Shown: positions 42,200 to 55,489 of the stretch, piece after piece
Layout of the letters: every line of letters starts with the position of its first letter
How positions within the stretch are numbered: position 1 is the stretch's first letter
Program-made: the position numbers and the translations under genes
Assembly (NCBI GenBank): GCA_964345775.1
Contig: CAYFSO010000002.1
Span: 15,679-79,678, forward strand
Reading direction: 5' to 3'
Length of the DNA: 64,000 nt
Origin: an uncultured Leptospiraceae bacterium
GTDB lineage: Bacteria > Spirochaetota > UBA4802 > UB4802
The notes under the pieces: generated by a model
Databases searched by the model: none
What the model was told of the DNA's origin: nothing
What the model saw: the letters and a program-made list of their open reading frames with translations, nothing else

Positions 42200-43711
42200 T
42201 TGTTGGTGACTGGAAAGATACCGGAAAACAATGGGCTTGTACTCTCATTGCTGGATCACCTGAATGAGGCCGTGGCCATTTGTTCACGGAAGGGATACCT
42301 AATATACCACAACAGTAAAATGATGGATTACCTGGGCGAACGTCCGGTGAGCGACCCCACCCTGGAAAAGCTGATCCAATCACTGGGTATGGAAAAAGAA
42401 CTGGGAAATTTGCTGCTTGGATGCATCGATTCAACCGAGCAGAAACTGCCTTTTTCTACTACCGTGCTGCTGTCAGATGAAAACGGTTTTAAGAGCTGGT
42501 GTGATATTATCATTGAAGAACTGGACGACGAGCACCGTATGCTTTCAATACGTGATGTATCTGACAAGAAGCTGGCAAAGGAGCTTTTGCGGTTCAGGGT
42601 AGGATTTGAGAAACTTGTGACACATATATCCACGTATTTCATAAACATGGATTACAACGAAATAGACAGCGGTATCATTGACGCACTGGAAAGGATAGCC
42701 GTGTTTTCAGAGGCAGACAGGAGCTGGGTATACTTTTTTAATCATTCCGGGGATACCATAGAAACTGCGTATGAATGGTGTGCGGAAGGAGTACCCTCCA
42801 TAAAAAAACATATGAAAGGTTTAGTTGGTGAACAGGTGCCTTTCTTGTCGGAAAAGATCAGGGCAAAAGAAACGGTTTTTTGTAATTCTATTGATGAACT
42901 GATTTCCACGGAGGATGAAAAGTTTGTTAAAGACCTGCCCATCAAGTCATTCATCGTGGTGCCTGTGGTAAGCAGCGGTCATGTGCGCGGTATTATTGGT
43001 CTCAGCACGGTTTACACGGAGAAAAACTGGCACGGGGATATTGTGACATTGCTGAAAATGGTAGGTGAGATTTTTGCCAACGCCAGGGAAAGGAAAATAT
43101 CCGACGAGGACCTTAAAAAAACCCTGATACAATTACGGCAGGCAATGGGGGGCATCATCCAGGCCATGGCCTTGACGGTGGAATCACGTGATCCCTATAC
43201 TGCAGGTCATCAGCGCAGGGTAGCAGATCTTGCAAGGGCGATAGCCGGCAAGTTGGGGCTTGGTGTTGACGAGATAGAGGCAATACGGCTTGGAGGAATA
43301 ATTCATGACCTGGGTAAAATTTCTGTCCCGGCTGAGATACTCAGCAAGCCGGGCAGGATAAGCCAGCTTGAATTTGATCTCATAAAAAGCCACCCCCTTA
43401 CCGCTTTTGATATCATAAAGACAATAGAATTTCCATGGCCCCTGGCGCATATTGTGCTGCAGCATCATGAACGGTTCGATGGCTCAGGGTATCCCTATGG
43501 GCTTTCAGGTGAAGAGATAAACAGGCATGCCAGGATACTGGCAGTGGCGGATGTTGTTGAAGCCATGGCCTCTCATCGTCCATACAGGCCAGCGCTTGGA
43601 ATGGCAACCGCCATGGAGGAGATCACCAAAAACAGGGGAATATTGTATGACCCCGAGGTGGTTGATGCATGTCTTATTGTCGTTGAAACAGAAGAATATA
43701 CCTTCAATTAG
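42200..43711 (+). CDS. GAF-domain HD-GYP phosphodiesterase
   Basis: C-terminal HD domain with HDLGK and HHERFDGSGYPYGL (GYP motif). Upstream PAS/GAF-like sensory region. Confidence 0.8.
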   Translation: MLVTGKIPENNGLVLSLLDHLNEAVAICSRKGYLIYHNSKMMDYLGERPVSDPTLEKLIQSLGMEKELGNLLLGCIDSTEQKLPFSTTVLLSDENGFKSWCDIIIEELDDEHRMLSIRDVSDKKLAKELLRFRVGFEKLVTHISTYFINMDYNEIDSGIIDALERIAVFSEADRSWVYFFNHSGDTIETAYEWCAEGVPSIKKHMKGLVGEQVPFLSEKIRAKETVFCNSIDELISTEDEKFVKDLPIKSFIVVPVVSSGHVRGIIGLSTVYTEKNWHGDIVTLLKMVGEIFANARERKISDEDLKKTLIQLRQAMGGIIQAMALTVESRDPYTAGHQRRVADLARAIAGKLGLGVDEIEAIRLGGIIHDLGKISVPAEILSKPGRISQLEFDLIKSHPLTAFDIIKTIEFPWPLAHIVLQHHERFDGSGYPYGLSGEEINRHARILAVADVVEAMASHRPYRPALGMATAMEEITKNRGILYDPEVVDACLIVVETEEYTFN

Positions 43712-43752: not shown

Positions 43753-45249
43753 CTATATATATTTTGGCTCCTTGTAGGAGTGCATGTCATGAACCCCGCC
43801 TTCTATCTGTGCTGACATTGATCGCATCTCAAATCGCAGTTCATTGGAGTGTAGCTTCTGGTGCAGAAGCGATACGCTACTGGTTCCTATGTCCTGAAAA
43901 GAATGTTTTAATCCCTGAAAAATGTATGGTAGATAGTCAAGCAGTGACCCCTTGTCTACAACGGCACCCGAAACACCCTGGGCTACCTTGATCTTGGATT
44001 CCTCGGCGAAATATCTCTTTGAGCCGCCTTTTTCCATTGCCTCAATTGATGCCATGCCACGGTATCTTTTCAGGCGGATACCGTTTTCATAAAAGTATTC
44101 ACCCGGGGCTTCCTCGGTACCGGCAAGCATGGATCCCATCATAACGGCAGAAGCGCCAATGGAAAGGGCCTTTGCAATATGACCGATATTGGCAACACCA
44201 CCGTCTGCCACAACGGGAATATCGTGCTTTCGTGCGTAGCGGGCACAGCGGTATACAGCCGTTGCCTGTGCGCGGCCAACTGCCATGGTGGTTTGCGTAG
44301 TACATATTGATCCTGGCCCCATGCCGATCCTGAGCGAATCAGCACCCGCCTTGATGAGATTTTCACACTGTTCTTCTGAAACAACGTTGCCAGCCATTAC
44401 ATCAATTTCGGGATAGGACTTTTTAATATACTTGATCATTTCGATCTGGTAAATGGAATTTCCCTGGGCCGAGTCGATGACAACAAGGTTTACACCTGCC
44501 TTTGCCAGTTCATGCAGCCGTTCCCTTGATTCGTCCTTGGTAGAGATGGCAGCGCCAACCATTAGCTGTTTTCGTGCGTCTTTTGAGGCACATGGGTATT
44601 CCCTGTTGGTGAGCAGGTCGTTCCGGCTCATAAGAGATACAAGGTGCCCGTTTTCGTTTATGATCGGCAGTTTTCCTTTCTTCGAATTTTTTAATATATC
44701 ATTTGCTTCGAAAAGTGTAACACCCTCGTGGGCCGTGAGAAGGTCGGTTGTCATAACCTCCCGTATCTGTTTGGACCTGTCATGCTCAAAATCAATGTCC
44801 CGGTTGGTAACGATACCGATCAGCTTTGAATAGAGATTCCCATCCTCGGTAATTGGAATACCAGAAAAACCATACTCATCTTTTATCCTGTCTATGTCCT
44901 GTATGGTATGCTGGGGTGAAAGAACAACAGGGTCCATGATGAAACCATTCTCATAACGTTTTACCTTTCGAACCTCGTCCACCTGTTCGTCGATGGAGTT
45001 GTTATAATGGATAATTCCGATACCACCAAGAAGCGAAAGAGTAATGGCCATCCTTGATTCTGTTACCGTGTCCATGGGACTTGAAATAACGGGCCGTTTG
45101 ACAATTATATTACGGGATACCCGTGACTCAAGATCAACCTCTTCTGGATTGAAGTCAATAAACCCCGGTAAAATTATGAAATCGTTGTACGCGATACCAT
45201 GTACTGTATCGAAGAGTTCCTGTGCGCTGAATCCGTCTTTTTTTGTCAT
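43753..45249 (-). CDS. guaB: IMP dehydrogenase (with CBS pair)
   Basis: Catalytic loop [23 protein letters not shown], tandem CBS domains. Start at the internal MTKKDGF. Confidence 0.95.
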
Positions 45250-45496
45250 TGTTTGCTCCTGTTGATAGAATAATAGCAATTGGGGAGTGCATCTTTGTCA
45301 AGCAATTACAAGATTGTCTCACGATTTTATATAAATGTAGCTGTTTATTGGCATCTTTCAACAAGAATTTTCATTAATATGAGCTGAGAAATTCATAATG
45401 GCACAGGTAATTTTACTTGCCATGTACATATTGAAAATGTCAATATAGATGAAGTGTTATTCAACAGGGAATGCGTATTTGAGCAGGAGGGGCAAC

Positions 45497-45856
45497 ATGA
45501 AAACCTGTAAGCGATGTGGCCAGTGCTGCCAGGATGTAAGGCTTGCAGAGCCTCCTGATCTCCTTGAAAAGGCATACCGTTACTGGCGAAAATCCAAAGA
45601 GATCGATCCTTCTTTTTCAGAGATATACCTGATCTATCCAATGCTTGTATTCAAGTACGAGGACCAGTCAGAGGATCTTCCATACCATTATTCGTGTAAA
45701 CATTTCTTAATGGATATTGATGGCAAACCGGGGTGTTCAATTTATGAAATACGTCCGCGAATGTGCAGGGATTTTCCCTATTACGATGAGGTGGAACACC
45801 TGAACAGGGATGAACCCCTGAGTCCATACAGTGGTTGTGGCTATAACGAGGGTTAG
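45497..45856 (+). CDS. YkgJ-family CxxCxxCC metal-chelating (Fe-S/Zn) protein
   Basis: N-terminal CKRCGQCCQ exactly matches the YkgJ-family CxxCxxCC motif. About 120 aa. Confidence 0.6.
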   Translation: MKTCKRCGQCCQDVRLAEPPDLLEKAYRYWRKSKEIDPSFSEIYLIYPMLVFKYEDQSEDLPYHYSCKHFLMDIDGKPGCSIYEIRPRMCRDFPYYDEVEHLNRDEPLSPYSGCGYNEG

Positions 45857-46954
45857 ATGATGGAAGTGGTGATAACTGGAGCCGCCTTTTTCGGCAGCAT
45901 GCTGTCATTCCTTATCGCGATGGGTCAGTTGGTGGTTACCTACAGGAGACTGGAGAATATTAACCTGGCCTTCCTTTTTACCTGTGTGGGGATCGTTCTT
46001 GTGCAGTACGGTTTTATGCTGAATAATACTGTTTCTCAAGTACCCGGGCTTGTATCGTTTCACCTGACCATTCTTTACCTCCTTGGACCGTTATTGTATT
46101 ATGCCTATTACCTGGTTATGCGATTCGAGGATGTTCTGCCCCTTTCCAAGCTACTGTACATGATGCCGGCTGTTTTTGCGCTGATTCTGGATCTATGGTT
46201 CTTAGGCAAACCTGTATTGTACCGCGAAATGATCATAGGTGAAATGTTCAGAAACGATGTTTCAGATATGGTGATGATCATTCGTGTTCTGATACTGGGG
46301 GCAGCTGTGCAGGCTGCATTGTACCTGGGGTTACTCTTAAAGAATATACTCATCTTCTGGAGATTCAGGGATTATTCTGCCATAACCACCATAACGCTGA
46401 TTTATATTGTAATATCAACGGTATCTCTTTTGCTCATAGCTGCAGCATTCATGTTCGGCTCGTTGGTCGTGTTACAGGTAAGCGTGGTATTCATTACCCT
46501 GCTTTTGATGGGTACGTACCTTGTGGGTCAGAGACACCCTGAATTTCTCCAGGTGCTTATCAAGGAGGCCAGGAAAAAGAGGTATGAAAGATCACTTTTA
46601 AATGGCTATGCCACTGATGAGTTGTGCTCACGTTTGCAGCACCTGATGGATGCCGAAAAGGTGTACGCCTGCGAAGATATAACATTGAAACAGCTTGCAG
46701 AGGAACTGGAACTTACCTCGCATCAATTGTCACAGCTGCTAAATGAAAATTTGAACATGAACTTTAATACCTTCGTCAACCAGTTCAGGATCCGTGATGC
46801 GAAACGCATGCTGGTTGAAGAACCGCAAAGATCCGTGTTGTCAATTGCTTACGCGGTAGGGTTCAATTCCAAGTCTTCCTTTTACGATGCGTTCTCTCGA
46901 TTCACCGGAAAAACGCCACAAAAGTACAGAAGGGACAATCTAACCGGTAGGTAA
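45857..46954 (+). CDS. Membrane-anchored AraC-family transcriptional regulator (6-7 TM helices plus C-terminal AraC HTH)
   Basis: Hydrophobic N-terminal 230 aa. C-terminal AraC signature (LSIAYAVGFNSKSSFYDAFSRFTGKTPQKYRR). Confidence 0.7.
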   Translation: MMEVVITGAAFFGSMLSFLIAMGQLVVTYRRLENINLAFLFTCVGIVLVQYGFMLNNTVSQVPGLVSFHLTILYLLGPLLYYAYYLVMRFEDVLPLSKLLYMMPAVFALILDLWFLGKPVLYREMIIGEMFRNDVSDMVMIIRVLILGAAVQAALYLGLLLKNILIFWRFRDYSAITTITLIYIVISTVSLLLIAAAFMFGSLVVLQVSVVFITLLLMGTYLVGQRHPEFLQVLIKEARKKRYERSLLNGYATDELCSRLQHLMDAEKVYACEDITLKQLAEELELTSHQLSQLLNENLNMNFNTFVNQFRIRDAKRMLVEEPQRSVLSIAYAVGFNSKSSFYDAFSRFTGKTPQKYRRDNLTGR

Positions 46955-47160
46955 TTATAAATCTGGTCGAAGAGTGCCTGTGCGCGTGGTAAAAAATATA
47001 TATAATGACATTGTGCAAAAACCATGTAGTTATTTAAAGACACCTTTTTTTGTGTATTAATTGAAAAATGGGGCACAATATATATATACGTATTAAAGGT
47101 TTTAATCATTAACGCTGCTGTTGCATGGTTTTGCTGTAAGAACTTCCTGGAGGATACCAT

Positions 47161-47676
47161 ATGGGAATTCTTTTTTACGCATTGATCAGCCTGATCTCTT
47201 ACCTGGTATTGACTGCCGGTTCAGGGGATGTTTTTATGCTTTGGTCCATCGAAGAACTGGTTGCAGGTGTGGTAATCAGCATGTTCCTGGGGTTTGTCTG
47301 TCACAACATAATTCCCAGACCCGTGAACGTCCAGGCATTTAATCCTCTCAGGTGGATCCTGGTCCTTCTGTATGTTGTCGGGCCATTCTTTATGATGCTG
47401 ATTGTTGCGAATGTTGAAGTAATTTACAGGGTACTTTCCGGAAAGATCAATCCTGCCATCGTGAAAGTTGAAACCGGGCTGAAAAGTGAAACCGGTGCCT
47501 ATATACTTTCTAACTCCATCACCCTTTCTCCAGGTACGCTCACCATAGAGTTGGAGCCTGATACACACGTATTATACATTCACTGCCTTAACTGGAAAAA
47601 GGAAAAAGGTGAAAAGGCGGAGCCCGGGGACGTATCAGGTATATTGCATTTTTTCATTAAGAAGATTTTCGGGTAA
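47161..47676 (+). CDS. Mrp/Mnh antiporter subunit E-like (MbhA-like)
   Basis: First gene of the Mbh-type operon. 171 aa, TM helices, MnhE-like. Confidence 0.65.
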   Translation: MGILFYALISLISYLVLTAGSGDVFMLWSIEELVAGVVISMFLGFVCHNIIPRPVNVQAFNPLRWILVLLYVVGPFFMMLIVANVEVIYRVLSGKINPAIVKVETGLKSETGAYILSNSITLSPGTLTIELEPDTHVLYIHCLNWKKEKGEKAEPGDVSGILHFFIKKIFG

Positions 47677-47691
47677 AAGGGGAGATATTTC

Positions 47692-47952
47692 ATGGAAACC
47701 ATGCTTATAGTATCGGTACTTCTGTTAAGCATATACATACTACTGATCGTGATTCGAATTGCCTTCAGTCATAATGTACCGGAAAGGATCGTTGCCCTTG
47801 ACACCATCAACACCATGATCATAACCATGATGGTTGTACTTGGAGCGGTAGAGCGGAAGGCTCTTTATATCGATATTGGCATTGTATATGGTATTATTTC
47901 ATTTATTGGCACGCTTTATATTGCCAGATACCTGATTGATGTGGGGAAATAA
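47692..47952 (+). CDS. Mrp subunit F-like (MbhB-like)
   Basis: 86 aa, three TM helices, MnhF-like. Confidence 0.65.
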   Translation: METMLIVSVLLLSIYILLIVIRIAFSHNVPERIVALDTINTMIITMMVVLGAVERKALYIDIGIVYGIISFIGTLYIARYLIDVGK

Positions 47953-48305
47953 TGGATACAGCTATTTATATTCTGCTTGGAATAGGATTGTTCGTGAACG
48001 CCATGAGTATCGTGGGAATTCTGCGATTTCCTGATATGTATACCAGGCTGCATGCTGCAACCAAGACAACAACCTTTGGCAGTATTTTCATGGTGATCGC
48101 GGTGATCCTTCACAGCATAATACTGTCAGATGCTGCCAGTACCGTTATTATAATACACTCTGCCGTAGCCCTCCTGGTTGTCATTTTCACCAACCCCATC
48201 AGTGCGCATGCCATAGCCCGCGCGGCCCTGATTGAAGGCATAAAGCCTGCTGGCGCACAGATCAACGAGTTTGACGAGAAAAAGAAGAGGGAGGCAAAAG
48301 GATGA
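47952..48305 (+). CDS. Mrp subunit G-like (MbhC-like)
   Basis: 117 aa MnhG-like. Start overlaps the upstream stop. Confidence 0.65.
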   Translation: MDTAIYILLGIGLFVNAMSIVGILRFPDMYTRLHAATKTTTFGSIFMVIAVILHSIILSDAASTVIIIHSAVALLVVIFTNPISAHAIARAALIEGIKPAGAQINEFDEKKKREAKG

Positions 48306-48547
48306 TCTCATCGGTAATATTTATCATGTTGTCAATAGTTATGATTGTTACAGCCGTTCTCAGCCTTTACTTTCGCGACCTCCTTGCAAGCGTGGTGAGT
48401 TTCTCGGTTATGTCGCTGGTGTTGACGGTAATGTTCTTTCACCTTGACGCTCCCGATGTTGCAATCGCCGAGGCTGGAATCGGTGCTGCGCTGACAGTGT
48501 GTGTGTTTGTGATCGCAATAAAGATGACCAGGAGAAGAGAAGAATGA
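48302..48547 (+). CDS. Small membrane subunit (MbhD-like)
   Basis: 81 aa, 2-3 TM helices. Translationally coupled (ATGA overlaps). Confidence 0.5.
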   Translation: MISSVIFIMLSIVMIVTAVLSLYFRDLLASVVSFSVMSLVLTVMFFHLDAPDVAIAEAGIGAALTVCVFVIAIKMTRRREE

Positions 48548-49374
48548 GACTGGCAAGTTTTTTATCACTGGTATTGATAGCCGGGTTCCTGTTTGTGGGC
48601 ATACTCAGGCTGCACCCGGTTGGTGAGCCGCTGGGTAATCCCCGTGTTTTTGAAGACAGGAGCAGCCAAATTACAGACATCAAGAATGTTGATACCATGG
48701 ATGATTATTACCTCAGGAACGGGCAGACCGAAACAGGCTCCAACAACCTTGTTGCAAGTGTTGTCTTTGATTACCGCAGCTTTGATACGCTTGGTGAAGC
48801 GACCGTGCTTTTTATCGTTGTTTCAAGCATATCCATGCTTCTGTTTACCCTCGTTAAGCGAAGGGGTACAGAAACAAGCGGTGTTAGCCGGATGAGAGAA
48901 TTCCCGGATGGTGTGTCACGCGTTATCACCTTCAGTTCTTTTCTTCTGTATATCTTGATTGTTACATTTGGTATATACCTGGTTGTGCATGGTCACATTT
49001 CTCCTGGAGGGGGATTCCAGGGTGGTGCTGTCATGGCTTCGGCCACTGCGCTGCTCTTAATAAGCTCACTTATAACCAGGAACGTGCAGAAAACCAAAAA
49101 GGTATTCTCATTTTTTGAGTCATTCGGGCTTACACTGTTTATCGGCATCGGTTTTGCAGGGATCGGGGTATCTTTTCTTTTCAATTTCCTGGCAAATGTT
49201 GACCCCACATTTTTTGGTAGAACGATCGGGTTTGGCCCAAACCCTGGCTATCTCGTGTCCGGCGGCACCCTGCCCCTGTTGTCCCTGGCAATTGGTATGG
49301 AGGTGTTTTTCGGCCTGAGTATCATACTGGTTACCATGTATCACGCTGCAAAAGACGAAAAGGCTGGAGAATGA
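48544..49374 (+). CDS. MnhB-domain membrane subunit (MbhE/F-like)
   Basis: About 276 aa polytopic protein, MnhB-like, in the Mbh gene order. Confidence 0.6.
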   Translation: MRLASFLSLVLIAGFLFVGILRLHPVGEPLGNPRVFEDRSSQITDIKNVDTMDDYYLRNGQTETGSNNLVASVVFDYRSFDTLGEATVLFIVVSSISMLLFTLVKRRGTETSGVSRMREFPDGVSRVITFSSFLLYILIVTFGIYLVVHGHISPGGGFQGGAVMASATALLLISSLITRNVQKTKKVFSFFESFGLTLFIGIGFAGIGVSFLFNFLANVDPTFFGRTIGFGPNPGYLVSGGTLPLLSLAIGMEVFFGLSIILVTMYHAAKDEKAGE

Positions 49375-49377
49375 ACT

Positions 49378-49737
49378 ATGTCGGATTTCTTTCTATACGT
49401 GACGGTTGTGCTGCTGATCTTTTTCGGACTGGTGGCCATTCTCTACAAGAGAAACCTTATCAAGTTAGTTATTGCCCTGAACGTTATACAGGCAGGGGTA
49501 AACCTGCTTTTCATAACCCTTGCCTACAGGCCTGATGGGACTGCACCGATTTTTACCCTTGCCCCGGCGGTAGAGGAATTGAAGATGGTACTGCCAACGC
49601 CACAGGCACTCATCCTGACCAATATTGTTATAGGGTTTGGAACCACCGCCCTTATGCTGACACTGGCCATCCTGACCTATCAGAATAATCGTACACTGGA
49701 TATACGCAAGTTAAGAGGTGTAGAGAACAATGACTGA
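49378..49737 (+). CDS. MnhC/NuoK-like subunit (MbhG-like)
   Basis: 119 aa, three TM helices, NuoK/MnhC pattern. Confidence 0.7.
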   Translation: MSDFFLYVTVVLLIFFGLVAILYKRNLIKLVIALNVIQAGVNLLFITLAYRPDGTAPIFTLAPAVEELKMVLPTPQALILTNIVIGFGTTALMLTLAILTYQNNRTLDIRKLRGVENND

Positions 49738-51446
49738 TCATATCCCGGTATTAATAATAGCCCTGCCGCTTCTAACCGCTTTTATGCTGCCTATTGCGGG
49801 CATGATAAGTACACGCCTTCGAAATATACTGGTATTTCTGGTCATCGTGGCGGTTAACCTGATGCTTCTTTCTCTTGTGCAGCGGGTTTCCATGGGGGGA
49901 GAGGTGCTCCATTACGTTGTTGGCGCGGCGAACCCCCAGCAGGTAATAATGGAGGGGCTTGATTTTCCAATACGGATTGTCCTGAAAATAGACGGGTTTT
50001 CTCTTTTCATGGCACTGATTTCAGGGGTCATTACCCTGGTTGTTTTCCTGTTCTCATGGAGTTATATACAGGAAGGGGAGCGCAAAAATTATTACCTGCT
50101 GCTGATGCTGCTGATCCTTGTGGGAATGCTGGGTATCGAGTTTACCAATGACCTTTTTAATCTTTTTGTTTTCCTGGAAGTTTTATCAATTTCGTCCGCG
50201 GCCCTGGTGGCTTATCGAACCGAGCGCAAGCATCCGCCGTATGCAGGATTCAAGTACATGCTGGTCAGTGCCATAGCTACAAGTTTCCTGCTGATGGGTA
50301 TCGCCCTCTGCTATGCCCAGTACGGCTCGTTTAACATGGATTACATCCATGGCATGATGCAATACAGCATGCTGGATAAGATGGCAATGGTCTTCATGCT
50401 GGTTCCACTTGCCATGAAGGCCGGGGCCATACCAATGCACATGTGGGTACCCGATACCTATTCGGAGGCACCGGCACCAATCAGTGCCATGTTGAAAACT
50501 GCCAGCATGGCAAGCCTGTATGCTCTATTCAGGCTGTCTTTGTCCCTGTTCGGTAACCCCCTTGAAGGCCCCGGGATGAACTATCATACACTTGGGTGGT
50601 TTGTCATCGTCCTCGGGGTGTTGTCAATGTTCATAGGGGTAACCATGGCACTTGTGCAGCACGACGTGAAGCGCCTGATGGCATTTCACGCGGTGTCCCA
50701 GACAGGATACATGCTGCTTGGTGTTGGCGTGGGTATCGCGGTACATGCAAACGCCGACGATGGCAGTGCCTTCAACCTTTTTGGAAAGGTGGCCATGATG
50801 GGCGGGATCTTTCACATGATGAACCATGCCTTTTACAAGGGACTACTGTTCCTTACCTCGGGAGTGATGGTACGGAGGTTCGGGACCCGTGGGTATCGCG
50901 GTACATGCAAACGCCGACGATGGCAGTGCCTTCAACCTTTTTGGAAAGGTGGCCATGATGGGCGGGATCTTTCACATGATGAACCATGCCTTTTACAAGG
51001 GACTACTGTTCCTTACCTCGGGAGTGATGGTACGGAGGTTCGGGACCCGTGACCTGAACAGGATGATGGGGATGGCCCACCGGGATACGTTTACGACGAT
51101 TGCATTTATCATCGGGGCCCTGGCCATTGCGGGTATTCCTCCTTTCAATGGGTTTTCATCGAAAATACTTCTTTATGAATCCGTGTATCGTTTCAGCCCC
51201 GTATTGTCAATTATCGCCATTTTTGTTTCGGTGCTGACACTGGCCTCATTCGTAAAAGTGTTTTACAGCGCCTTCCTGGGGCCCGAGAGAAAGGACATGA
51301 TCGTTGATGAAACCCCGGTTTCACCCGGTATGACGCTGGGGATGGGAATACTGTGCGTGCTGGTAGTTGGGTTCGGGCTGTTCCCGGACCTGGTTGTGGG
51401 GATTATCGTAGAACCGGCTGTCAATAGCCTGGTAACAATACTGTGA
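49730..51446 (+). pseudogene. MnhD/NuoL-like proton-pumping antiporter subunit (MbhH-like), frameshifted by a 160-bp tandem duplication
   Basis: ORFs 49730..51052 and 50889..51446 are the two halves of one NuoL/M/N-family gene (conserved MMNHAFYKGLLFL motif) in different frames. A perfect 160-bp repeat at the junction explains the shift. Confidence 0.8.
50728..51051 (+). repeat. Perfect direct tandem duplication, 2 x 160 bp (unit about 50731-50890 repeated at 50891-51050; boundaries ambiguous by up to 3 nt)
   Basis: Read directly: gggtatcgcggtacatgcaaacgccgacga...ggaggttcgggacccgt occurs twice consecutively with no mismatch. Confidence 0.95.
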
Positions 51447-51464
51447 CAGGGGTGATGTGCTAAA

Positions 51465-51818
51465 ATGTTTACAGTGGAAAAGATATTTACTCAAAACACC
51501 GGGATAATCTGGTATCCCCTCCTGCTGATAGCAATATTCCTGCTGCTTGTGTTTATTCTGTGGGTATGGGGTCGGTATTATTTCAGGAATGATTACAATG
51601 AAAAAACAGCACAGGTAAAACCCTTTAACTCGGGAAACCTTGAGGAAATAGATTACTCAATCAGGTCGGGGAACCTTTACTGGGGCTTCAAGAAGGCACT
51701 TGACGGTTTTTATAACTGTATGGAATCACTGCATACCGGCGACCTGAATGATTACATGGTCTGGCTGTTCCTTTCCATCGGTGTAGTGCTTCTCCTGGTC
51801 AGTGGAGGATTATTATGA
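51465..51818 (+). CDS. Small membrane subunit (MbhI-like)
   Basis: 117 aa with two TM helices, at the Mbh operon position between the antiporter and hydrogenase modules. Confidence 0.5.
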   Translation: MFTVEKIFTQNTGIIWYPLLLIAIFLLLVFILWVWGRYYFRNDYNEKTAQVKPFNSGNLEEIDYSIRSGNLYWGFKKALDGFYNCMESLHTGDLNDYMVWLFLSIGVVLLLVSGGLL

Positions 51819-52270
51819 AAAAGAAACTGCTGAATACCTCGTTTAAACGGTCGTTGTGGGCATTCCACATGAACACCGGTTCCTGTAACGCCTGTGATAT
51901 CGAGATACTGGCAACCCTGATGCCACGATATGATGCTGAACGATTTGGCATCAAGCTGGTGGGTACCCCCCGGCACGCTGACGTGCTGCTGGTAACCGGT
52001 ACGGTAACCGAGAAGATAAAGGACCGTGTACTGCGTGTGTATGAACAGGTGCCCGATCCGAAGCTGGTAATAGTAATTGGCGGATGCGGTTCCACCAAAG
52101 GTGTATACCAGGAGTCCTATGCCATGACGGGACCAATAGATAATTATATTCCCGTTGACGTGTACATCCCCGGCTGTCCACCCAGGCCTGAGGCCATACT
52201 GTACGGGGTTGCCAGGGCATGGGAAAAGCTTGAATTATTGATGAAAAAAGGAAAGAAGAATGCATCCTGA
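51815..52270 (+). CDS. [NiFe]-hydrogenase small subunit, NuoB-like (MbhJ-like)
   Basis: [4Fe-4S] ligands in NuoB spacing (GSCNACD...GGCGSTKG...PGCPP). Confidence 0.9.
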   Translation: MKKKLLNTSFKRSLWAFHMNTGSCNACDIEILATLMPRYDAERFGIKLVGTPRHADVLLVTGTVTEKIKDRVLRVYEQVPDPKLVIVIGGCGSTKGVYQESYAMTGPIDNYIPVDVYIPGCPPRPEAILYGVARAWEKLELLMKKGKKNAS

Positions 52271-52733
52271 TGATATAGTAGCAAGGTTCAGCAGTGAACT
52301 GAAAGGGCATTTTACCGCCTCAAGAATACAGGAAACACCCGAGGGCAGGGATGGTTTAAATAAAAGGACCAGGCTGTGGCTCAACGTGGACCGTGACGTA
52401 TTTCACCGGGCTGTGGCTCTCTTGAAAGAATTCGGTCCACCCCATATTTGTACTCCAATGGCATCAAAAGAATACGATCAAACAATGGAGCTCATTTATC
52501 CGTTCACGTTGAACTATGCCGCGGAACGATACGGTGAACTGGTTGTGATAATCGTGGTAGATATACCCAGGGATGACATGCGCATCAGGAGTGTCAGCGA
52601 CCTGGTACCGGGTATACTGTACATGGAACGTGAAACAATGGAAATGCTTGGCGTCATTATTGAAGATATCCCTGATCCAAGGCGCCTTTTTACTACTGAC
52701 GGCCTGGGTGATTCTTTTCCCATGCGGGACTGA
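52260..52733 (+). CDS. NuoC-like 30-kDa subunit (MbhK-like)
   Basis: 157 aa NuoC/HycE-N-like fold, located between NuoB-like and NuoD-like genes. Confidence 0.75.
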   Translation: MHPDDIVARFSSELKGHFTASRIQETPEGRDGLNKRTRLWLNVDRDVFHRAVALLKEFGPPHICTPMASKEYDQTMELIYPFTLNYAAERYGELVVIIVVDIPRDDMRIRSVSDLVPGILYMERETMEMLGVIIEDIPDPRRLFTTDGLGDSFPMRD

Positions 52734-52775
52734 CGGGAACTTTTGCACTAATAACTGTATGGAGATGTTGTAACC

Positions 52776-54014
52776 ATGGAAAAATCAATAACCTATCCTT
52801 TACAGATAGGGCCTACACATCCGGCATTCAAGGAACCAGTACGATTCTCTTTCAGGATGGACGGGGAGCGAGTATCGGATGTTGATATAGACCTGGGGTA
52901 TACCCACAGGGCCATCGAGGTAATTTCGAAAGAACGTAATTTCATCCAGACCATTTATCTGCTGGAACGGATATGTGGTATCTGCTCTGTGTCACATCCC
53001 CTGGCGTATTGCCTGGCAGTGGAGGAGGTGGCAGGGATGGAGGTCCCTCCCCGTGCAAAGTATATACGTACGATAGTGGGTGAGCTCGAACGCCTTCATT
53101 CGCACCTGTTGTGGGCAGGGGTTGCCGCCCACGAGATCGGGTTTGACACCCTCTTCCTCTATACATGGAATATCCGCGAGAAGGTGCTTGACTGTCTGGA
53201 ACAGTTCACCGGTAACAGGGTTAATTACGCGCTGCTTACTATTGGTGGAGTACGCCGGGATATTACGGAAGAGGTTTTCCCCGTAATCGAGGAGACGCTG
53301 GAATACTATACCGAACTGTTTCAGCGTGCATCAGAGATACTGCTTGATGACCAGAGCATACGTTTCAGATGTGAAGGGACGGGTATACTCACATATGAAC
53401 AGGCTGTCGCGTTATGTGCGGTGGGACCCAACGCACGTGCCTCGGGACTGGCGAAGGATGTCAGGGTGGATTACCCGATACTGGCGTACCCGGACATGGA
53501 CTGGCTTAAGCCGGTAACCCCCAGGGACATTGGAAAGGAACCGGTTGGTGACGTGTATGACCGCATGGTGGTCAGGGTGATGGAGATCAGGCAGTCGGTG
53601 GATATTATACGATACTGCCTGGATAACCTGCCTGACGGCCCAATCGCGCTGGAAAAAGGTGCCATTAAGATTATAAACAAGCTTAAGAAAGTGCAGGGAG
53701 AAGGTATAGGCCGTTACGAGGCCCCCAGGGGAGAGGTGGCCCATTACGATATTCTTGATCTGAACGAGTGCCCGGTGCAGATGAAGGTAAAGGCACCAAC
53801 GTATTCCAATGCCTTCACATGGGTACCCATGCTGCAGGGGACGGAAATAGCGGATATCCCCATCGTTATCGCATCAATTGACCCCTGTGTAGCCTGTGCT
53901 GACCGCATGACCATACTCAGGAATGACGGTTCAGTGGAAGCATTGAACGCAGAGTATTTACACAACCTGAGCGTTAAAAAGATGAAGGAGGTTAGGTCCC
54001 GATGCAGTGGTTGA
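52776..54014 (+). CDS. Group-4 [NiFe]-hydrogenase large subunit, NuoD-like (MbhL-like)
   Basis: N-terminal Ni-Fe ligand motif RICGICSVSH and C-terminal DPCVACADR, followed by a 34-aa C-terminal extension. Confidence 0.92.
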   Translation: MEKSITYPLQIGPTHPAFKEPVRFSFRMDGERVSDVDIDLGYTHRAIEVISKERNFIQTIYLLERICGICSVSHPLAYCLAVEEVAGMEVPPRAKYIRTIVGELERLHSHLLWAGVAAHEIGFDTLFLYTWNIREKVLDCLEQFTGNRVNYALLTIGGVRRDITEEVFPVIEETLEYYTELFQRASEILLDDQSIRFRCEGTGILTYEQAVALCAVGPNARASGLAKDVRVDYPILAYPDMDWLKPVTPRDIGKEPVGDVYDRMVVRVMEIRQSVDIIRYCLDNLPDGPIALEKGAIKIINKLKKVQGEGIGRYEAPRGEVAHYDILDLNECPVQMKVKAPTYSNAFTWVPMLQGTEIADIPIVIASIDPCVACADRMTILRNDGSVEALNAEYLHNLSVKKMKEVRSRCSG

Positions 54015-55036
54015 TATATATATTTGTCATACCTGTAACGGTGCTTATTGCGGGCGGGATAATCGGACTGTACGCGAAGGGGATAGACCGCAAGTTGGCC
54101 GCCTATTACCAGTCCCGTATCGGCCCGCCGGTACGACAGCCGTTTTATGATATCAGCAAGCTGATGCAAAAGCAGACCATAATACCTGAAAATGCGGTTG
54201 GGTGGATATTCAGGGGAGCGCCTTACATGGCACTTGCTTCCAGTGTTATTTTGCTTGTATACGTGCTTGTCCCGTACTTCGCGTGGATCGGTGGTGCCGA
54301 TTTCTTTTTCAGCAACAGTGGTGATATTATCCTGGTGCTGTACCTTTTGATGATCCCATCAATAGCACTGGTTGCCGGAGGGTTCGCATCGGGCTCACCA
54401 TATGCAACTGTTGGGGCACAGCGTGAAATGGTTATACTCATGTGTGTAGAACTGCCTCTGGCGGTAATCGCGGTTACGTTCGCCTGGCGTTTGTCTAACG
54501 TTGCACCCGCTTTACCGCCGTTTTCTCTTGTTACCATGACAAGTCATCCGTTATGGACGGGCATGGGGCCCTTCGGCATACTGGGAGGAATGCTGCTGGC
54601 ACTGTCAATGGCGGTGGTGATACCGGCCGAACTCGCAAAGATACCCTTTGACCAGGCGGAAGCGGAGACCGAGATAGCCGAGGGGCTTCTTGCAGAATAT
54701 TCCGGTAAATACCTGGCCTTTTACCAGGTAGCTGATGGTGTAAAGTCGCTCGCGGTAATTTCTCTGGCGGTGATATTGTTTTTTCCCCACGGATTTACGC
54801 AGATGACGGGTTACGTGGTGCAGCCGGGCGGGATGGATATTACCCTCCTGGTTGATACGGGCCTATTCATGGCGAAGGTGTTTGCTGTCTATTTCGTCTC
54901 GGTTACAACCGTACGAATAGCCATGGCGAGGTTCAAAATTTCACAGGTTGCAAAACTGTTTTTGATCACCATAACCGTTATGTGTTTGGCCGGTTACGTG
55001 TTGATCACGCTTGATCCGGTTATTGCAACACTTTGA
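54002..55036 (+). CDS. NuoH-like membrane subunit (MbhM-like)
   Basis: 344 aa polytopic, NuoH/HycD pattern. Confidence 0.8.
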   Translation: MQWLIYIFVIPVTVLIAGGIIGLYAKGIDRKLAAYYQSRIGPPVRQPFYDISKLMQKQTIIPENAVGWIFRGAPYMALASSVILLVYVLVPYFAWIGGADFFFSNSGDIILVLYLLMIPSIALVAGGFASGSPYATVGAQREMVILMCVELPLAVIAVTFAWRLSNVAPALPPFSLVTMTSHPLWTGMGPFGILGGMLLALSMAVVIPAELAKIPFDQAEAETEIAEGLLAEYSGKYLAFYQVADGVKSLAVISLAVILFFPHGFTQMTGYVVQPGGMDITLLVDTGLFMAKVFAVYFVSVTTVRIAMARFKISQVAKLFLITITVMCLAGYVLITLDPVIATL

Positions 55037-55054
55037 TTCACGAGGAGCGCAACA

Positions 55055-55489
55055 ATGCTTGGTGCAGTATATAAAGTAATTGAACAGTTTTTTTCAAACA
55101 AATCAACCAATCTTTTCCCGGTAAAATATATTCCCGAATCAACCGGGGATATGCTTCAAGATGGCGGGATCAACCCACCGGTACCTCTACCGGAAGGCAT
55201 AAGGGGCCGGCTTGCGTATGATTATGATACCTGTATAGGGTGTGCCATGTGTGAAAAAGTGTGCCCTGCCAGGGCCATTGAGCTTTATCCCGTAAAGGCG
55301 GGTGAAAAGAAATCAAAGCGTATAGTAATATTTCTTTCACGGTGTACCTATTGTGGCGAATGTGTTGATATCTGTCCCAAGAACTGTATAACCATGGAAA
55401 AATTCGTGTTCATGGCCGGTTACGATAAATACGGGGATGAAATGATTATCGGATCTGCTGAACGGGTGAAGAACGAGATTGAAGATTAA
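55055..55489 (+). CDS. NuoI-like 2x[4Fe-4S] ferredoxin subunit (MbhN-like)
   Basis: Two CxxCxxCxxxCP motifs (CIGCAMCEKVCP, CTYCGECVDICP). Confidence 0.85.
   Translation: MLGAVYKVIEQFFSNKSTNLFPVKYIPESTGDMLQDGGINPPVPLPEGIRGRLAYDYDTCIGCAMCEKVCPARAIELYPVKAGEKKSKRIVIFLSRCTYCGECVDICPKNCITMEKFVFMAGYDKYGDEMIIGSAERVKNEIED

Follow-up and report, generated by a model that had tools for sequence, protein, structure and literature searches.

A polytopic seven-helix AraC-type protein as the probable regulator of an adjacent Mbh-type hydrogenase operon in an uncultured member of the Leptospiraceae

The subject of this article is a window of 64 kb (the whole stretch of DNA that was analysed, 64,000 nucleotides from an uncultured Leptospiraceae bacterium), and in particular a gene within it (45857–46954, plus strand) that lies immediately upstream of an operon for a membrane-bound hydrogenase, mbhA-N. 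An identical sequence was found in a metagenome of a microbial mat (ERR2437277), and the relatives are Spirochaetota MAGs (metagenome-assembled genomes). To judge from its sequence, the encoded protein of 365 residues is a polytopic transmembrane one-component regulator of the AraC/XylS class, having seven transmembrane (TM) helices with its N-terminus outside and its C-terminus inside the cell, and what it most likely controls is the adjacent mbh operon downstream, a conclusion that we hold with reasonable but far from complete confidence. That a membrane-embedded AraC protein might serve as a local regulator of mbh had been proposed in the initial annotation of this DNA, and the proposal now has support from three directions: mbhA follows every orthologue of at least 50% identity for which the downstream DNA can be read, it does so in two different upstream settings, and the only copy in the window of a DNA element that goes with the regulator's family lies at the start of the spacer between the two genes. 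Directly before the regulator gene stands a small gene for a cysteine-rich (Cys-rich) protein, which had been taken as part of the same module; the present analysis corrects that inference, which was attractive but wrong.

The regulator and its family

The C-terminal part of the protein is readily assigned. Residues 280–359 match the profiles HTH_18 (E 1.3e-21) and HTH_AraC (E 1.7e-8), and the C-terminal domain of about 100 residues contains the pair of helix-turn-helix (HTH) motifs that characterise the AraC/XylS family. The first 230 residues or so are hydrophobic, and for residues 1–245 a Pfam search at E ≤ 10 gives nothing except noise (YjcB, E 6.4). The model predicted by AlphaFold (from 60 homologues; pLDDT 87.9) has seven long helices (residues 2–25, 32–55, 69–88, 96–117, 137–169, 175–200 and 203–226), a linker helix and a canonical AraC two-HTH domain, dividing the chain into a TM bundle (residues 2–226), the linker (230–244) and a DNA-binding domain (253–363). 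Basic residues occur mainly in loops on the predicted cytoplasmic side (ten Lys plus Arg there, as against three in the loops outside), which implies the N-out/C-in topology and would place the HTH domain in the cytoplasm. The original description of this gene as encoding membrane helices fused to an AraC HTH, ahead of the first mbh gene, thus stands, with the predicted number of helices being seven. A single polypeptide that carries both an AraC domain and seven predicted TM helices is a transmembrane transcription regulator in the sense of a published census (PMC10269533), according to which such proteins are enriched in Spirochaetota, Leptospirae and Bacteroidota, those of the Leptospirae having on average at least three TM segments.

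Full-length homologues of about 365 residues number more than 100, those with a named source coming from MAGs of Spirochaetota, while a scan of one genome per species gave relatives of complete or nearly complete length in Leptospira and in MAGs that carry the labels delta-proteobacterial, Bacteriovoracaceae, Ignavibacteriales, Calditrichia, KSB1 and Bacteroidota. When the seven-TM (7TM) part alone was searched with phmmer against 1.84 billion representatives, 149 clusters were returned, most of them of about 350–380 residues; the shorter matches look like fragments, the few longer ones add only N-terminal extensions, and among these 149 clusters, at the sensitivity of phmmer, there was no sign of the 7TM module being joined to any output domain other than AraC. 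On this pattern of lengths and domains the 7TM-AraC architecture looks fixed. No characterised regulator having this architecture was found in the literature searched.

Both recognition helices (TxHQLSQLLN and GFNSKSSF) are almost invariant across the family, which fits with a core DNA motif being shared by its members. A separate observation concerns a cysteine at position 257, in the first helix of the DNA-binding domain: it is present in all seven of the regulators grouped here as orthologues and in 2 of 53 paralogues, the other 51 having a hydrophobic residue at this point. For six of the seven an Mbh context is confirmed at one locus or another (P0003 by way of locus L095, 77%), and the remaining one, P0005 (48%), is without context data. 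Cys257 is the sole hint of any thiol or metal link for the regulator.

The element behind the stop codon

Comparison of the DNA downstream of many family members revealed a shared motif directly after the stop codons, in orthologues and paralogues alike. Instances of it are GTAATTATAAATCTGGTCGAAG in the window, GAATTATAAATCAGGGCGAA in L003, GGAATTATAATTTCGGTCGACA in L005/L006, GGATTTATAATTCCGGTCGACA in L015/L016 and GAGTTTATAAG-ACGGTCGACA in L029/L031. With 29 instances aligned on the second half, the layout is a block of 20 nucleotides (nt), GTnnnnAWTTATAAnnnnGG, abutting a TCGACA-like hexamer, followed by a 17-nt spacer and TAnnnT. The occurrence of a −10-like hexamer in these 29 boxes peaks at just this spacing, 16 of them scoring at least 4/6 at spacer 17 as compared with 10% at other spacings (binomial 3e-9). 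Read in this way, the family layout is that of a putative operator at −55 to −36 fused to a promoter of sigma-70 type; an operator at −55 to −36, abutting the −35 hexamer, is the classical geometry of activators of the AraC/XylS class. About 10.5 bp separate the two conserved sub-motifs, TTATAA and GGTCGAC, in the sequence, as expected for a monomer with two HTH motifs.

In the window the 20-nt operator-like block is GTAGGTAATTATAAATCTGG (46947–46966, plus strand), and it overlaps the stop codon of the regulator gene (46952–46954). A position weight matrix (PWM) built from 11 instances has exactly one match in the window when both strands are considered (46951–46974, 25.4 bits), and the whole operator-promoter likewise has its sole copy there, at 46947–46995. 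Applied to 73 held-out loci, the same PWM finds a match on the gene strand between −30 and +250 of the regulator stop in 12 of them, where only 0.15 would be expected (Poisson 2e-19), its background occurrence being about 7e-6 per position.

A variant of the element, ATTTATAAATCCGTACTCC, is found at the same place in eight Bacteroidota loci (including Flavobacterium, Pedobacter and Emticicia), the regulators in front of it again being polytopic and about 350 residues long. The Bacteroidota motif, G[GA]ATTTATAAAT[CT]CGTACTCCTGA, is near-identical across genera and lies at −9 to +66 nt of the regulator stop; the loci concerned are L073, L079–L081, L083, L085, L089 and L093 (Emticicia, Flavobacterium, Pedobacter and a Roseivirgaceae MAG). 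The variant second half-site, GTACTCC, goes together with SKSTFF as against SKSSFY/N in the second recognition helix, a correspondence that is suggestive, if confounded by phylogeny. Overall, the candidate operator and promoter begin either right at the stop codon of the regulator itself or no more than about 130 nt from it, and they face the next gene, a placement that is seen in Spirochaetota (including Leptospira), Bacteroidota, Ignavibacteriota and MAGs of Desulfobacterales type.

Some further observations on the box may be added here. At paralogues linked to genes for aldehyde:ferredoxin oxidoreductase (AFOR), a terminator-like hairpin with a T-run lies between the regulator stop and the box (L005, 7084–7123; L006, 7099–7125; L016, 5700–5733), unlike the situation in the window, where box and stop codon overlap and a terminator is absent. 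That the box might act as an RNA hairpin was considered, given that its palindromic arms co-vary in some loci (CCGGA/TCCGG, CCTGA/TCAGG), but this was rejected as the copy in the window is not self-complementary. The box sequence was not found in the literature, matches to CGGTCGAC seeming to be unrelated judging by their titles.

Genes downstream of the regulators

The orthologues that have mbhA downstream of them are 87% (L011/L012), 77% (L095), 75% (L013), 51% (L003/L009) and 50% (L014 and L168/169/173/174) identical to the window regulator, and they fall into two clades as regards the upstream flank, which is guaB in one and a Peptidase_M23 gene in the other. A natural deletion is seen on comparing L164 (10320–10460) with L003 (5975–7300): the two match across the displayed junction except for the clean loss of the regulator open reading frame (ORF) together with the left part of the operator, the junction in L164 running from GAATAAGT directly into GGGCGAAAAAATTAGGG, while the mbh operon and a promoter-like block in front of it (P2, see below) remain. 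From this it would appear that regulator and operator come and go as a unit, and the persistence of the mbh operon without its regulator is as one would expect if the regulator is modulatory. On one metagenome contig (L004, 1258–2651) regulator and box are followed by a Transposase_mut gene and not by mbhA.

The paralogues (identity of at most 45%) stand upstream of, and co-oriented with, single target genes or operons of other kinds. Those closest to the window regulator stand before AFOR genes, and AFOR, several times accompanied by Fe-alcohol dehydrogenases, is the presumptive target at no fewer than five distinct loci; further targets are an AdhE-like fusion, a GMC oxidoreductase, an acyl-CoA dehydrogenase, an SDR/epimerase, an alpha/beta hydrolase, a fatty-acid hydroxylase and a B12-binding radical SAM protein, while in Leptospira perolatii the gene downstream of the paralogue encodes an acyl-CoA synthetase. 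Neither an Mbh gene nor the Cys-rich gene was found within up to 10 kb of the paralogous regulators (L005–L008, L015–L018 and L020–L094).

The spacer and its candidate promoters

The spacer between the regulator gene and mbhA (46955–47160) is indeed AT-rich (33% GC, as against 46% for the window), although at 206 bp it is one longer than initially given. No intrinsic terminator was found between the regulator and mbhA; a search of Rfam at E ≤ 1 over 45200–47400 returned no riboswitch or RNA element, and the fold of the 5′ untranslated region is no better than that of shuffled sequences (z −0.2). An inverted repeat, ATTGTGC...GCACAAT (46995–47094), was considered as a site of CRP or Rex type and set aside, its arms being 56 nt apart and the left arm not being conserved in relatives.

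Two candidate promoters can be discerned. The first, P1 (46967–46995, plus strand), follows on from the operator-like block, and consists of a −35-like TCGAAG (46967–46972) and a −10-like TAAAAA (46990–46995) separated by a 17-nt spacer, with TGG (46987–46989) in front of the latter, as in an extended −10. The second, P2 (47050–47079, plus strand), is a promoter-like block in which, on our own reading of the hexamers, TTGTGT (47050–47055) and CACAAT (47074–47079) are separated by 18 nt and followed by ATATATA. P2 is conserved in four close relatives, better than is P1, and its counterpart in the other Mbh-linked clade, TTGTAT-17-TAnnnT, begins at a distance of exactly 17 nt behind the box and persists at loci from which the regulator is missing.

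It must be acknowledged that a number of these points, together with some others, weigh against control of mbh by the 7TM-AraC protein acting through this element. That the regulator binds the candidate element is deduced from their co-occurrence, and the element might instead be mainly a promoter, or a binding site for another factor. The −35-like hexamer is degenerate in the clade of the window (TCGAAG, versus TCGACA in the family), the −10 of P1, though preserved in L095, is weaker in L011 and missing through deletion from L013, and a simple sigma-70 consensus scan calls neither P1 nor P2. From the operator to P2, the better conserved of the two, there are about 85 nt in the downstream direction, which is far for direct activation of the AraC type, so that the regulated promoter may be P1, P2 or the two in tandem. 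Furthermore, the regulator is dispensable for having Mbh, given that in four loci (L158, L163, L164 and L166) the Cys-rich gene is followed by Mbh with no regulator, while three further Mbh operons (MbhA 58–60% identical) have neither the regulator nor the Cys-rich gene upstream. The link between regulator and Mbh, real as the gene order indicates it to be, is confined to two sister clades.

Of the alternatives, the one that survives best, albeit as an improbable account, is that the element serves the downstream gene simply as its promoter, or is where some different shared factor binds, with the 7TM-AraC protein acting elsewhere or acting as a repressor. What such an account has difficulty in explaining is that the element tracks the regulator family across at least four phyla whatever gene lies downstream, against the low background occurrence given above (about 7e-6 per position); a generic promoter would not be common to Spirochaetota and Bacteroidota, as the promoter consensus sequences of these two phyla differ. 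It can certainly point to the fact that half of the element is a good −35 of sigma-70 type with a −10 at 17 nt, but the operator-like part nevertheless occupies, at −55 to −36, the position from which AraC/XylS proteins classically activate. Two features sit more easily with it than with recognition by the regulator, namely that the left half shows a partial palindrome (CCGGAATTATAATTTCGG), an uncommon trait in sites for AraC monomers, and that very similar elements stand beside several paralogues within one genome (L024/L029; L031/L045), which poses a problem of cross-talk.

The cysteine-rich gene

The gene that precedes the regulator (45497–45856, plus strand, with an AGGAGG ribosome-binding site upstream) encodes a protein of 119 residues that matches the CxxCxxCC profile of the YkgJ family, PF03692, with an E value of 1.4e-8 and a score of 35.7 bits, well above the gathering cut-off of 23; public sources call it a YkgJ-family or Fe-S-cluster containing protein. 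Its family and its position directly before the regulator were thus correctly noted at the outset, whereas the gap of 1 nt reported then is in fact 0 nt, the stop codon TAG (45854–45856) being followed directly by ATGATG, or 3 nt should translation start at the second ATG, the choice made in the public gene call. Cysteines occur at positions 4, 7, 10, 11, 67, 80, 90 and 114, and the N-terminal cluster reads C4-x2-C7-x2-C10-C11. Among 38 aligned homologues the conserved residues are C4, C10, C11, C67, C80, C90, C114 and H64, but C7 is replaced by Arg in 23 of them, so that the CxxC from which the family takes its name does not seem to be characteristic of this orthologous group, in which the motif is mostly Cx5CC instead of CxxCxxCC. 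Neither a TM segment nor a signal peptide was found in the protein, nor were any structural analogues or sequence relatives in the PDB (its predicted model being poor), and no established function for the YkgJ/UPF0153/PF03692 family was found in the literature searched.

Some 100 clusters have 63–84% identity to the protein of the window, and a level of conservation of about 70% is unusually high for an uncharacterised gene. Of 85 loci having a Cys-rich protein at 64–93% identity, 62 hold enough downstream DNA to judge what follows: in 48 there is neither regulator nor Mbh (33 of these 48 being next to guaB), in ten there are both, and in the other four Mbh follows directly. Conservation of the pair upstream of mbh in relatives, which the initial annotation had suggested as a check, is seen at those ten loci, and not at the four lacking the regulator or at the three Mbh operons, mentioned above, that have neither gene. 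The neighbour on the other side, guaB (IMP dehydrogenase; 43753–45279, minus strand; IMPDH Pfam domains were found in the orthologous locus), is found upstream of the Cys-rich gene, in divergent orientation, in 42 of 86 sequences (the 85 loci and the window), and many Spirochaetota share the synteny of this divergent pair, which occupies 43753–45856 in the window and recurs at 33 metagenome loci (among them L097, L108, L121 and L123). Judged by its neighbours, the Cys-rich gene is a conserved core gene of Spirochaetota, with guaB as its usual neighbour, and in all likelihood the regulator does not have a dedicated partner in it. The two genes are probably co-transcribed in the window, and their spacing of 0–8 nt argues for co-expression in those lineages that have both.

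Two further rival explanations give the Cys-rich protein a larger role, and both seem to us distinctly unlikely, slightly more so than the account in which the element is a promoter only. The first is the original proposal, in which the two proteins form a dedicated two-protein sensor, the small one binding metal or an Fe-S cluster and serving as redox cofactor or co-sensor for control of the hydrogenase. The close packing of the genes (co-oriented and 0–8 nt apart in all loci with regulator and Mbh where the upstream DNA can be read) does suggest co-translation, but the 48 of 62 loci without regulator or Mbh have a small protein that is equally well conserved (about 70%), and the absence of its gene from every paralogous regulator locus, within the distance searched, implies that the family works without it. 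Likewise, seven Cys and one His are conserved in the small protein and the Mbh-linked regulators share Cys257 (7/7, as against a hydrophobic residue in 51/53 paralogues), but C7 of the CxxC is not conserved, the protein lacks both a TM segment and a signal peptide, a search for structural analogues found none, and there are the four loci in which it stands before Mbh without any regulator. A role as cofactor or redox sensor of the pair is thus left mostly unsupported.

The second, of much the same low probability, would tie the Cys-rich protein to Mbh itself, for instance in metal or Fe-S handling or in electron transfer, the regulator being a later insertion between them. The direct adjacency of the Cys-rich gene and mbhA (about 115 nt apart) in L158, L163, L164 and L166 is in keeping with this, as is the fact that the gene stays beside Mbh, or regulator and Mbh, in the guaB and M23 upstream contexts alike; however, a single ancestral arrangement and one upstream rearrangement would explain the pattern equally well, most loci of the Cys-rich gene have no Mbh within up to 10 kb, the three Mbh operons with MbhA at 58–60% lack it upstream, and no such gene is known from the Mbh operons of Thermococcales.

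Just upstream of guaB, at 42200–43711, lies a gene for a protein with GAF and HD-GYP-type (HD_5) domains, probably a cyclic di-GMP phosphodiesterase, which is syntenic in the 87% relative L011.

The hydrogenase operon

The presumed target, mbhA-N (47161–55489, plus strand), is complete and encodes a 14-subunit membrane-bound [NiFe] hydrogenase of the type known from Pyrococcus. From mbhA (MnhE, starting at 47161) the order is MrpF, MnhG, MbhD, MbhE/MnhB, NuoK-like, NuoL-like, an unnamed ORF of 117 residues in the position of MbhI, NuoB, NuoC, a large subunit of NuoD type, NuoH and NuoI-like, and there are Pfam or NCBIfam matches to MNHE, MrpF, MnhG, MbhD, MbhE together with MnhB, NuoK-like, NuoB, NuoC, NuoD-type, NuoH and NuoI. 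This order of 14 genes, Mrp-like ones first and then those resembling NuoB/C/D/H/I, is that of the Mbh group 4 hydrogenases and is found also in related loci. As translated, the large subunit (412 residues) keeps the motif RICGICS towards its N-terminal end and DPCVACADR towards its C-terminal end, so that both CxxC ligand motifs for Ni-Fe are present, which is what separates Mbh from Mbx/MBS and from complex I.

Within mbhH (49730–51446) there is an exact tandem duplication of 160 nt (50728–50887 and 50888–51047) that shifts the frame of the NuoL-like subunit. It is missing from an independent assembly of the same sample (L001), which encodes an intact protein of 518 residues, and for this reason the duplication is likely to be an artefact of assembly or a minority variant. 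The relatives of MbhA comprise a spirochaete group at 50–88% identity, followed by Thermococcales (Thermococcus, Pyrococcus and Palaeococcus) at 37–45%, which on sequence grounds suggests a transfer of the operon between domains. Upstream of another spirochaete Mbh operon (L175, 1–3355) there are, both on the opposite strand, genes for an AraC-family protein of 524 residues with a different architecture and for a protein with 7TMR-DISM and SpoIIE domains; the two may represent an alternative regulatory arrangement for Mbh.

A proposed mechanism and signal

If the 7TM-AraC protein does control mbh, its seven-helix bundle would receive a signal in or at the membrane, and its cytoplasmic two-HTH domain would bind the 20-nt element at 46947–46966. 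As this element abuts the −35-like hexamer, the domain would then be at the spot where activators of the AraC family recruit RNA polymerase, and transcription into mbhA-N would follow; the regulator would on this basis activate mbh rather than repress it. To have the operator-promoter at the stop codon of its own gene would suit a membrane-tethered factor that is unable to search the chromosome freely.

As to the signal, most of the paralogue targets act on aldehydes, alcohols or acyl chains, i.e. on small amphiphiles that partition into membranes, and AFOR, which stands behind the nearest paralogues, makes the reduced ferredoxin that Mbh consumes. Taken together these favour a fermentation-linked lipophilic signal, which is our leading guess, although ion or energy status is also possible.

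A wider and considerably more speculative generalisation, which we regard as doubtful though less so than any of the rival explanations discussed above, is that 7TM-AraC proteins of about 360 residues are widespread receptor-transcription factors that act obligately in cis. The bundle would respond to a ligand carried in the membrane or to the membrane's own condition, the protein, inserted beside its own gene, would switch on the promoter that starts at its own stop codon, and the member linked to Mbh would tie the expression of a hydrogenase that translocates ions to a membrane signal, whether a fermentation-derived amphiphile or ion/energy status. If this were true, the regulator in the window would be the first to be proposed for a bacterial Mbh, none having been described for a bacterial Mbh-type hydrogenase in the literature searched. 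In any event the locus offers a concrete candidate for such a regulator, with a defined target of 20–50 nt; the target of each 7TM-AraC regulator should be predictable from sequence alone by way of the cis element, and the family offers a tractable system in which to ask how a polytopic membrane protein reaches DNA. Two cultivable genera that have homologues, Leptospira and Flavobacterium, are genetically tractable.

Comparison with known systems

ToxR, TcpP and CadC provide the most obvious parallel, in that they anchor a DNA-binding domain at the cytoplasmic membrane and unite sensing and output in one polypeptide. These are, however, single-pass proteins with an N-terminal winged-helix domain of OmpR type and a periplasmic sensor, whereas in the present case the order is reversed, an N-terminal 7TM bundle being followed by a C-terminal AraC two-HTH domain; there is almost no periplasmic domain, and the candidate target promoter abuts the regulator gene itself. 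With AraC, RhaS, XylS and MelR (and with MarA, SoxS and Rob, which act as monomers) the likeness lies in the position of the proximal site, which in these activators overlaps or abuts the −35 hexamer. The differences are that the sensor here is a membrane bundle and not a soluble cupin or dimerisation domain, and that in the 7TM-AraC family one candidate site per promoter is evident from the sequences.

Resemblance to known 7TM receptors may be no more than generic to 7TM bundles. The regulator has no match to 7TMR-DISM_7TM or related Pfam 7TMR families even at E ≤ 10, and neither sequence homology to the G-protein-coupled receptor (GPCR) superfamily nor its signature motifs were found; identities to folds of 7TMR-DISM, 7TMR-HD and GPCR type are 8–12%, which amounts to no sequence similarity. 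7TMR-DISM modules also combine with many output domains, unlike the 7TM module discussed here, which at the sensitivity of phmmer is seen with AraC only.

A functional rather than a structural parallel is provided by SurR of the Thermococcales, which is likewise a dedicated transcription factor governing an Mbh operon. The regulon of SurR in Pyrococcus also covers ferredoxin-linked enzymes, and the closest paralogues of the window regulator stand before AFOR genes; SurR, however, is soluble, belongs to the winged-helix proteins and has a CxxC as its redox switch, and it is unrelated to the window regulator in sequence, fold or location. Membrane-integrated one-component regulators are, then, already known, and the 7TM-AraC arrangement is a variant of them; what appears to be new is an abundant and unannotated 7TM-AraC architecture with a recognisable candidate operator-promoter right behind its gene.

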